Positions 4,711 to 6,928 of a stretch of DNA of 64,000 nt are shown piece by piece. The translations under genes and the position numbers were made by a program. This stretch comes from Ascidiella aspersa (Eukaryota). Below the pieces are notes generated by a model, which made no database searches, was not told where the DNA came from, and saw nothing but the letters and a program-made list of their open reading frames with translations. Each line of letters starts with the position of its first letter. Within the stretch, counting starts at the first letter, position 1. Location of the stretch: positions 29,574,001 to 29,638,000 of the forward strand of contig OZ004611.1 in the NCBI GenBank assembly GCA_963924565.1, given 5' to 3'.

Positions 4711-4727
4711 ATCGCTTCTCGGCTCTT
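4711..4727 (+). pseudogene. U2: 5' 17 nt of an interrupted U2 gene (3' part resumes at 12821)
   Basis: ATCGCTTCTCGGCTCTT after the normal U2 upstream spacer, then element sequence. Confidence 0.9.
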
Positions 4728-4900
4728 CAGAGACCTAACATTGGTGGTATACGAGCCTCATCCACGAGTTAACTTTGCAACTTCAATCGGGAAGGCAAAG
4801 AGTGAGCCCCTTCAGCTGGCCAAGTTCCTCGTAAACAGATTATACTTGTTAGGCGAGTTCCCCCGGTTGTCGTGTGGTATCGTAGTCACGTTCCTCGACT

Positions 4901-5086
4901 TGGAGCCCGACGACTCTCTTTTGAGAGCGTGAGGCACAGATACTGGTTTGGAGCCCGACGACTCTCTGTTGAGAGCGTGAGGCGTAGATACTGGTTGGAA
5001 GCCCGACGACTCTCTGTTGAGAGCGTGAGGCCTAGTTGTTACTGGTTGGGAGCTCGACGACTATCTGTTGATAGCGTGAGGCACAG
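4901..5086 (+). repeat. Four ~48-bp hairpin-forming tandem repeats in element 5' UTR (also 14164-14349)
   Basis: GGAGCCCGACGACTCTCTGTTGAGAGCGTGAGGC... x4. Confidence 0.85.
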
Positions 5087-5198
5087 TTTTCGTCCCCCGG
5101 TTTTCAGCGGCTCCTACGCGGCCATCCGCGCGCTCCGCCCCGGGCCTCTTCAGCAGCGGAGCTCCCGGCATTTTTTTGCCGCAGCCCTCACCCGCACT

Positions 5199-5780
5199 CC
5201 ACCGGAGGTCCCTGCAGTTGCCGGTGTGCCATCCGGTGTTTGCTGCCCAGCTCTTGGCCTCACCCCACCGGAGGTCCCTGCAACGTTGGCCAGCTCTTCG
5301 GCCCTCTACCTCCAGTGTTCGCCGACCCCCACCGGAGGTCCCTGCAGTTGCCGGTGTGCCATCCTGTGGTTGCTGCCCAGCTCTTGGCCTCACCCCACCG
5401 GAGGTCCCTGCAACGTTGGCCAGCTCTTCGGCCCTCTACCTCCAGTGTTCGCCGACCCCCACCGGAGGTCCCTGCAGTTGCCGGTCTGCCCTCTAGTGTC
5501 CACTGGTCGGCTCTCCACTGTACCCCACCGGAGGTCCCTACAACTTCGGCAACTTTGTGGTGCTCTACCACCAGCGTCCAGCTACCCCCACCGGAGGTCC
5601 CTGCAACCTTGGACAGCCCAGCGGTCCTCTAACACCTGCACTCCGCCTCCACCACCGGAGGTCCCTGCACCTGCCCGCTGCTCTTAAGCCTTCACAACCG
5701 GAGGCTGTCGCAGCCGCCGGTCTGCCGTTTGTGCACCAGTTCCCGACCTTCACAACCGGAGGCTCTCGCAGCCGCCGGTC
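5199..5780 (+). repeat. ~65-bp periodic repeat with core CCACCGGAGGTCCCTGCA in element 5' UTR (also ~14462-15043)
   Basis: Core at ~5199, 5265, 5329, 5395, 5459, 5525, 5588, 5652 plus two degenerate copies. Confidence 0.85.
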
Positions 5781-6389
5781 TGTCGTAAGTTGCTGTACCC
5801 GCTGAAACCAGCCACCATCTCAACTGCGCCTCTCCCCACTCCATCTGCTCCCAACCAGCCTCACCGTCTCACCATCCGCTTCCAACCCATCCGCCTCAAA
5901 ACCAGTTCTACCATCTGTTCCAAACCAGCCTGCCCATCCATCTGCCTCACCGCCTCACCATCTGCTCCAATCTCGACAACACCACCGAACGTGACTACGA
6001 TCCACACCCATCTTCACCACACGACAACCCACTACCACCTACGAAGAACTTGGCCCATCACCACCAGCAGCCCTTCACCCCTAACTCGCGGATTACACTC
6101 TGGATTAATACCACCAAAACTCAAAGGATTATTCCACCTTTCATCGCTCTCAATCATCGCCGGATCCGACACCCTTCCCCCCCTGGTTGGCCCACATCGC
6201 CGGTCTCCTTCTAAACAAGTATTTTAGCATAACCTTCTATCCTTTTTGGCCGAGAAGCACCTAACTTTAATTTAATTTATCATACTCCCCCTTGGTTATA
6301 TCTTTTAATACCCTCCCCCCCTGTAACTCAAGCAATTTTAATAAGGACTCGCGCCGGCTCTAAATTGTGCTTCCTCGGTCCCTCTACCA

Positions 6390-6908
6390 GTTTTATATCT
6401 TACCTTTTTATTATTACATTACATACATTTTACTACTACATATTATTACATATTATTACATACGTCTCGCTCTTTCACAATTTTACTGTGCCACGACTAC
6501 TCGCAGACTTATATTTTACCTTTTTATTATCACATATTATTACATAAATTTTACTATTACATATTATTACACATTATTACATACGTCTCGCTCTTTTACA
6601 ATTTTACTGTGCCACGACTACTCGCAGACTTATATTTTACCTTTTTATTATTACATATTACTACAAACATTTTATTATTACATATTATTACATATTATTA
6701 CATACATTATATTATTACATATTATTACACATTATTACATACGTCTCGCCCTTCTACAATTTTACTGTGCCACGACTACTCGTAGACTTATATTTTACCT
6801 TTTTATTATCACATATTATTACATACATTTTACTATTACATACTATTACACATTATTACATACGTCTCGCTCTTTTACAATTTTACTGTGCCACGACTAT
6901 TCGCAGAC
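6390..6908 (+). repeat. AT-rich, G-poor tandem repeat (4 units of 121-158 bp, TATTACA-rich) just upstream of the ORF (also ~15653-16171)
   Basis: CGTCTCGC anchor at 6463, 6584, 6742, 6863. Confidence 0.88.
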
Positions 6909-6928
6909 TGTACACCGGTACCAACGTC

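Follow-up and report, generated by a model that had tools for sequence, protein, structure and literature searches.

Utopia elements have one ORF with zinc fingers, RT and a restriction-like endonuclease (RLE), and their 3' junction in U2 genes lies at nt 39 of the human U2 numbering (PMC4640811); they make no target duplication and occur as few copies in a U2 array (PMC4640811, Kojima and Jurka 2015). The element analysed here resembles Utopia in all of these respects. In the parts of PMC4640811 covered here, the Utopia table holds no tunicate, the main text describes no expression route for Utopia, and neither a long ATG-free leader nor a pairing of the ends is mentioned for it. The YURE elements of Ciona resemble the present element in that AATAAA likewise stands close to the end of YURECi and YURE-2_Cis (PMC4640811 supplement, in the part covered), and differ from it in that YURE (YURECi, YURE-2_Cis, YURE_CSa) is described as weakly specific and joins U2-like DNA ~20 nt further downstream.

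RLE elements in small-RNA genes are also known from nematodes (NeSL-1, in SL1 genes) and trypanosomes (SLACS and CZAR, in SL RNA genes). SLACS is transcribed from the SL promoter. NeSL-1 has been proposed to be co-transcribed with SL1 and to have no promoter of its own (PMC7650587, in the part covered), so that the use of a host small-RNA promoter is not new as an idea. The leader RNAs of those hosts reach mRNAs anyway, whereas the present element lies in the gene of the spliceosomal U2 and has a leader of 2-3 kb to cross.

Transcription and translation of RLE elements outside rDNA are largely open, and the locus offers a concrete route. The original prediction had read the absence of ATG between the U2 start site and the ORF as selection for cap-dependent scanning of a transcript made from the host U2 promoter. 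This interpretation is partly supported and probably right in outline; the folding of the leader and the pairing of the start region with the 3' end had been missed.

The element and its copies in the U2 array

The window (64,000 nt; G000:C5:29574001-29638000) holds the end of a U2-U1-U6 array whose 1193-bp unit consists of U2, U1 and antisense U6. In the 308-Mb genome, 41 of 48 U2 matches had the score of a full gene, and the host U2 was closely alike the Ciona savignyi U2 printed in the supplement of PMC4640811 (as far as covered). Together with the nearest named proteins, from Clavelina and Ciona, this makes an ascidian host likely. The array contained four full-length copies of the element, all of them with the 1571-aa ORF intact, and one truncated copy. 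No intact copy was found outside U2 in the genome.

All features of the first full-length copy lie on the + strand. The U2-unit spacer upstream of U2 +1 (4351..4710), which also precedes intact U2 genes, is presumed from its position to be the site of the U2 promoter. It is followed by U2 nt 1-17 (4711..4727) joined to the element 5' end (4728..4750), which has a weak likeness to U2 nt 18-38 with the branch-site-pairing letters changed; this likeness was modest, its score being equalled by 15 of 1178 background windows for subfamily A and by 18 for the corresponding head of subfamily B. Leader A (4711..6928) leads to a single ORF of 1571 aa (6929..11644) and a 3' UTR (11645..12815). The end consists of AATAAA, a 14-nt arm, A4 and G (12797..12820), a likely poly(A) signal and tail remnant, after which U2 resumes from nt 41 (human nt 39) to its end, with the Sm site (12821..12975). 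This is the Utopia 3' junction, and U2 from nt 39 (human numbering) followed the 3' ends of subfamily A in the array (5/5) and three 3' ends of subfamily B.

The second intact copy (13974..22108, +) has its ATG-free leader at 13974-16191 and its ORF at 16192-20907. A decayed copy (28847..30595, +) retains U2 upstream DNA, U2 nt 1-17, a mosaic leader and a broken ORF start with the AUG at 30366; part of its leader (29571-30318) is of a third type. The 3' end of a 5'-truncated copy occupies 1..1171 (+), and the head of this copy meets U1 nt 1-27 shortly before the window begins. Subfamily B (86% identity in the RT protein; C1:20619228) has its AUG at the same place as A. Its leader of ~2.7 kb can be aligned to leader A over about 220 nt only, and a second copy of leader B (C5:29768680-29771916, minus strand) lies upstream of a B-type 3' end and is itself immediately preceded by 244 bp of U2 upstream DNA (97% identical). 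U2 upstream DNA preceded each of the four full-length copies of A, one of the two B copies and the decayed copy; it did not precede the other B copy or the diverged copy L051. Target specificity would by itself also place copies behind the U2 promoter.

The protein has zinc-finger-like motifs at its N-terminus, an RT domain (RVT_1, E 8e-31 in the domain search), and CCHC (1392), RHD (1419) and PD-D-K motifs (RPDL 1457, D..PFE 1472, K..KY 1491). Its nearest named proteins were from Clavelina (47%) and Ciona (Q76IM9, 46%), the latter of which we take to be YURECi. In a quick IQ-TREE of 59 rows, the element fell in an 8-row clade with these tunicate proteins (SH-aLRT 100) and within a 53-row Utopia-like clade (100) that left the R2 of the same genome outside; the Utopia side of this tree is made up of relatives labelled by host, without named Utopia reference families. 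The element is an RLE non-LTR retrotransposon of a YURE-like branch that uses the Utopia site in U2. By target it is not a YURE, as it occupies the canonical Utopia site and not a junction ~20 nt downstream in a U2-like satellite, nor an R2, as the insertion is not in 28S rDNA. Keno (Tx1 clade) was rejected because the domain search gave no APE domain and the protein has RLE motifs instead. A metagenome scan of 80 loci gave one clearly related locus (L107; frameshifted, without U2 flank, its leader cut) and one with any U2.

ATG counts in the leaders

Leader A had been described as free of ATG from 4711 to 6928, and the + strand had none from 4646 to 6928, the first ATG being that of the ORF at 6929; CAT was common, as had been noted (47 in 4711-6928). 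The expectation of roughly 30 ATG was too high: base composition gave 23, dinucleotides gave 20, and dinucleotide shuffles within blocks of 30-500 nt gave 9-12. Depletion persisted after repeats were collapsed, with 6.8-8.0 ATG expected in 1428 nt and none seen. Leaders with no ATG arose in 0 or 1 of 1500 shuffles per setting (P about 0.001). The longest ATG-free stretches of the window were the one over leader A (2284 nt) and that over the same region of the second copy (2337 nt), followed by one of 870 nt. ATG was the second most depleted of the 64 trinucleotides of leader A, and because GGG and TAG were likewise low, leader A by itself is significant and not overwhelming. The 3' UTR of A, which is similar in make-up, had 6 ATG with 5.8-6.6 expected. 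None of the 45 differing columns among the four intact copies created an ATG (about 2 expected at most), nor did any of 18 listed contig variants within the leader (<1 expected). No upstream ORF or non-AUG extension was found, as stops break all three leader frames.

The ATGs noted in the decayed copy at 28997 and 29496 are present; the one at 28997 is an ACG/ATG difference common to the diverged copy L051, and was therefore not necessarily gained by the decayed copy. Two ATGs among a few dozen substitutions are at chance level, with 4% of single changes creating an ATG. The repeat of approximately 300 bp in the same copy had also been called ATG-free; the segment 29571-30318 had 0 ATG with 4 expected (6/400 shuffles), and the lack of ATG in a single unit was not significant (P about 0.1). 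The 312-bp repeat matched a fragment of the third leader type elsewhere, which had 0 ATG with 4.4 expected (9/2000 shuffles).

Leader B is A/T-rich and nearly free of repeats. With one MITE per copy left out, its two copies had 1 ATG in 2683 nt (33.8 expected) and 1 in 2489 nt (35.2 expected), each private to its own copy, and ATG was the most depleted of the 64 trinucleotides in both (z -7). The later-inserted MITEs carried 5 and 7 ATGs, and the 3' UTR of B had 10 with 9.2 expected. Every copy of A and B that was seen has a purine at position -3 relative to the AUG. As three leader types avoid ATG, composition is excluded as the cause, and it becomes unlikely that the leader is spliced out. 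Depletion by composition alone, which the original prediction had named as a refuting outcome, is contradicted by leader B together with the chance-level 3' UTRs, and the selection against upstream AUG that it had proposed is well supported, much better by subfamily B (1 vs 34) than by the earlier arguments. Upstream AUGs have very probably been purged, as they would trap scanning ribosomes.

Eleven other RT loci of the genome were examined (six two-ORF LINEs, three R2 and two single-ORF elements of another clade). The longest ATG-free stretch (654-1277 or 658-1281 nt) ended at the ORF1 start in five of the six LINE loci, and four of these stretches, chosen for being ATG-free, had 0 ATG with 3.7-9.9 expected. 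The three R2 and two single-ORF loci had no long ATG-free stretch next to the ORF, and the R2 of the genome had 2 ATGs in a 110-nt 5' UTR (one copy). An ATG-free leader by itself is ordinary and, being shared with LINEs, does not identify the promoter; the contrast with R2 is the informative part of the avoidance.

RNA ends and predicted pairing

The stretch from the U1 start to U2 +1 holds eight ATGs, the nearest 66 or 119 nt upstream of U2 +1, so that a scanned RNA should start past them, which argues against read-through from U1. U2 nt 4-14 can pair with 6248-6258 (11 bp); in leader B, a helix of 13 bp is possible between U2 nt 2-14 and a site whose position is not homologous. Among 262 17-mers of the snRNA unit, only U2 nt 1-17 formed a helix of at least 11 bp in both leaders (4 reached 11 bp in A and 1 reached 13 bp in B), in a test made after the site had been noticed. 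The motif at 6248..6260 (+) has two candidate partners, U2 nt 4-14 (4714-4724) and a local one at 6367..6380 (+) that resembles U2 nt 4-15; in subfamily B, inspection by eye showed two compensatory pairs for the helix 6248-6260:6367-6380. It is possible that the motif pairs with free U2 snRNA or with target DNA instead.

Since snRNA promoters lie upstream of the gene (PMC4494074, in the part covered), the ATGs between U1 and U2, the U2 complements and the U2-like heads together favour a start at U2 +1. The proposed host U2 promoter was thus strengthened as to the start, by the complements of U2 nt 2-14, the U2 upstream DNA and the U1-U2 ATGs, and lost the ATG-free leader as proof of promoter or cap. 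Judged from these sequences, the RNA quite probably includes U2 nt 1-17 and starts at the U2 start site; a head copied back would explain the identical 5' junctions and the replacement of nt 18-40. We infer the cap and the use of the promoter.

At the other end, AATAAA was followed by 14 nt and then 4-6 A in both A and B, as a polyadenylated RNA would end. No Sm site was found within the element. Transcription from snRNA promoters is coupled to 3'-box/Integrator processing and not to polyadenylation (PMC7044329, in the part covered). From one RNA run with the same species label, of which about 6/100 was read, 13 reads fell on 6860-12780 and 2 on 4360-7300; no read in this small sample was 99% alike, and the reads showed no joints and no start peaks.

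Much of leader A was predicted to fold into a nested rod of 1.33 kb (4760..6093, +), with an MFE of -534 kcal/mol vs -442 +/- 10 in 55 local shuffles (z -9). The predicted helices were 4760-71:6082-93, 4818-33:6040-55, 4865-78:6016-29, 4879-93:5987-6001, 4943-54:5917-28, 4993-5002:5878-87 and 5043-53:5847-57. The rod has exact inverted repeats as arms (14-15 nt) and encloses 48/51-bp and 64/66-bp repeats. It had no ATG (5.4 expected; 3.7 after repeats were collapsed, 16/2000 shuffles), which suggests that ribosomes probably cross it at least at times. Past the rod, 6094-6928 had an MFE of only -71 with 25% paired, and the A/C/T-rich, G-poor tandem repeats of 121/158 bp at 6393..6909 (+), predicted to fold weakly, are likely the lane for scanning. 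No comparable rod was predicted in leader B.

The 14 nt at 6906..6919 (+), 10-23 nt upstream of the AUG, are the exact complement of 12802-12815, the last 14 nt of the element before the A-tail, and are identical in subfamily B. Four arms in the coding region (6951..7036, +) are complementary to the 3' UTR in order (6951-62:12748-59, 6971-83:12718-31, 6986-93:12550-57, 7025-36:12537-48). In A as in B, a stretch of ~130 nt spanning the start codon is thus complementary, in order, to the final 280 nt of the element. The 3' arms (12537..12815, +) include blocks among those kept between subfamilies, and at both ends the complementary arms are kept within UTRs that have otherwise diverged. Predicted cofolding of the ends gained -54 kcal/mol in A and -58 and -60 in B, vs -5 to -28 in 52 non-overlapping control windows and -36 in a window that overlapped the true partner. 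Exact complements of at least 11 nt numbered 3 and 4; among 851 control pairs there were 0 in 840, 1 in 10 and 2 in 1. Of the 16 genomic occurrences of the 14-mer or its complement, 13 were at these two element positions. Most arms are identical in A and B, which gives conservation with little covariation. On this modelling, the 3' end in all probability pairs with the start-codon region, and it is an even question whether such pairing would act as a switch between translation and template. Heavy predicted folding, and pairing of the start region with the 3' end, suggest that more than plain linear scanning is probably involved; the predicted rod of -534 kcal/mol and a possible cap-proximal helix on nt 4-14 would both hinder such scanning.

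Proposed route and known systems

The element, its junctions, the avoidance of ATG in two largely unrelated leaders, the AATAAA with A-tail and the complementarities are direct observations. The explanation that we consider reasonably likely is that a U2-targeting RLE element has its RNA made from U2 +1 by the host promoter, capped, polyadenylated and scanned to the AUG at 6929. Starting at U2 +1, the U2 promoter would yield capped RNA; transcription, meeting no 3' box nearby, would continue across the element to AATAAA, and ribosomes would scan the leader to the conventional AUG at 6929. New protein would bind the element RNA, and the RNA 3' end would clamp onto the start region, blocking the AUG, stopping translation and holding both ends, so that open RNA would be translated and closed RNA would be the template for target-primed reverse transcription. 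Priming of reverse transcription would take place at U2 nt 40/41, and the cDNA would anneal upstream by its U2 nt 1-17 head, which would replace nt 18-40. A fuller version is offered tentatively: the U2 promoter may give an 8-kb capped, polyadenylated mRNA whose U2 head is masked by leader pairing, a 3' clamp on the start codon may switch between translation and reverse transcription as in flaviviruses, and the clamp may bring both RNA ends to the target, which would explain the precise full-length insertion.

The same scanning could serve an RNA from an internal Pol II promoter in the element 5' end, as in L1, with the U2 promoter a bystander. LINE-type leaders of the genome are also ATG-free, the 913-nt leader of human L1 is scanned cap-dependently (PMC6769788, in the part covered), and diverged copies retain the first 150-180 nt of the element, all of which would suit such a promoter. 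It is unlikely, given that both leaders are complementary to U2 nt 2-14, a host sequence upstream of the element-specific part, that the 5' ends of A and B cannot be aligned past the U2-like head, and that intact copies were found in U2 only. Also improbable is a start at U2 +1 followed by a shunt or cap-tethered entry, in which a rod closed by 4714-24:6248-58 would put the cap beside the lane 6393-6909. The predicted helices are nested with 4714-24:6248-58 outermost, and folding after 6094 is weak; a clean bypass would not need a rod purged of ATG (0 vs 5.4) or a leader B depleted throughout, and intact copies have no AUG-started short ORF ahead of the rod.

Spliced-leader trans-splicing occurs in ascidians, and the leader could be removed from the translated RNA in that way or by cis-splicing, only the template RNA keeping it. 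Leader A has GTRAG motifs, a low TAG count and a CAG at 6905-6907 behind pyrimidine-rich repeats, and in B an AAG stands some 20 nt ahead of the AUG. Splicing is very unlikely, since B has not retained the AG at 6907 and a sequence that is removed would not be purged of ATG over 2-3 kb. We give hardly more than a slim chance to uncapped RNA released by a self-cleaving ribozyme and then scanned or entered internally: R2 and L1Tc use such a route (PMC7650587, PMC5814959, in the parts covered) and the element 5' end is predicted to be structured, but Rfam gave no ribozyme match at E up to 10, a home-made pattern without a positive control hit neither an HDV-like nor a hammerhead ribozyme in A or B, and a capped start by Pol II is already available at U2 genes. 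Composition, repeats or mutation bias alone, to which the G-poor, repetitive leader A with its low GGG and TAG would lend itself, is extremely improbable in view of leader B (1 vs 34 ATG, z -7) and of 3' UTRs at chance (6 vs 6.1 and 10 vs 9.2).

For the preferred route of capping at U2 +1 and scanning, the 5' UTR of human L1 provides a likeness as a long, structured leader that is scanned cap-dependently (PMC6769788, in the part covered), with the differences that L1 is an APE element with an internal promoter and a leader of 0.9 kb. For the pairing of the ends, Ty1 genomic RNA has complementary near-end sequences (CYC5/CYC3) that are needed for replication (PMC7969010, in the part covered), as are the near-end complements of flavivirus 5'-3' cyclisation (PMC12168079, in the part covered). 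Ty1 is an LTR element and flaviviruses are RNA viruses, whereas the present element is non-LTR and its pairing is a prediction from sequence and modelled folding. No end pairing of a non-LTR element was found among the first 15 of 55 papers from an open-access search or in passages of three R2 papers; within the open-access literature searched, Utopia expression and non-LTR end pairing are apparently not in print. For one family, a 3' end predicted to pair with the start-codon region would explain how the same RNA passes from ribosomes to reverse transcription, and what keeps the 5' end in place for full-length insertion. What makes the locus interesting is less its lack of ATG than the pairing of the U2 head and the 5'-3' clamp.

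Gene-insertion tools are being developed with R2-type proteins. R2 shares with the present element RLE, a single ORF and dependence on a host promoter, and differs in being a Pol I co-transcript with an HDV-like ribozyme and non-canonical initiation, its proteins requiring no Met start (PMC13580325, in the part covered); the present element has a conserved AUG, an ATG-free leader and AATAAA. The locus is a natural test of whether an snRNA promoter can yield a long polyadenylated mRNA, and the route proposed for it would differ from that of R2 at every step, with a host Pol II snRNA promoter, scanning, a conventional AUG and a poly(A) signal.

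Small upstream frame and internal complementarity

In the leader of the U2-targeting element at 4711-6928 (subfamily A), a 27-codon frame with an ACG start was present at 4751-4834, its end lying at the 4818-4833 helix. Where this copy has ACG, both the decayed copy (28847-30595; ATG at 28997) and the diverged copy at L051, outside the window, have ATG, in weak context. A CpG hot spot could account for this difference, or the frame could be a short upstream ORF belonging to a different subfamily.

Within the 3' UTR (11645-12815), the start (11659-11669) was the exact 11-nt complement of a late segment (12515-12525), and both motifs were also discernible in the diverged sister, subfamily B.

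Junctions in U1 and rearranged copies

Two different insertions were joined to U1 at nt 27-28 (window 22500-24200; L026, just upstream of the window, about 8070-8100). The former was a decayed two-ORF LINE (22507 onward) terminating the snRNA array, and the latter a 5'-truncated Utopia copy with its head behind U1 nt 1-27 and its tail in the U2 position; here the snRNA unit lacks about 780 bp. Both U1 junctions possibly resulted from a common cut site in U1, or from a template switch.

The L051 copy (9066-7558, minus strand) had an internal deletion, with element positions 13-155 fused to 6087 onward, and was preceded by DNA from upstream of U1 and by a 3' end of the B type; this copy could represent either a non-autonomous derivative or the outcome of a deletion. 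Decayed minus-strand stretches resembling, by appearance only, a virus-type helicase gene (L071 5680-3700; L072/L073) split copies of subfamily B and of the third leader type.

Remaining window and other retroelements

A DNA-transposon-like insertion (24930-28520, minus strand; ORF 26744-27292) was nested in the decayed LINE that terminates the array. Several repeats of 300 nt or more, with approximate spacings of 6.7, 3.0 and 1.1 kb, lay in 48760-64000 and probably represent a segmental tandem duplication.

Elsewhere in the genome (G000), many diverged two-ORF LINEs were clustered on contigs C3 (5.22-5.44 Mb) and C7 (14.77-14.81 Mb). Their open frames encode roughly 1180-1220 aa, and the stretches retrieved from these clusters contained no match to an Rfam RNA. 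RLE elements were inserted in 28S on contig C5 (L101-L103). The element at L103 occupied the R2 site, with a 5' UTR of 110 nt, and the 28S junction of the element at L102 differed from it, lying at an earlier position.
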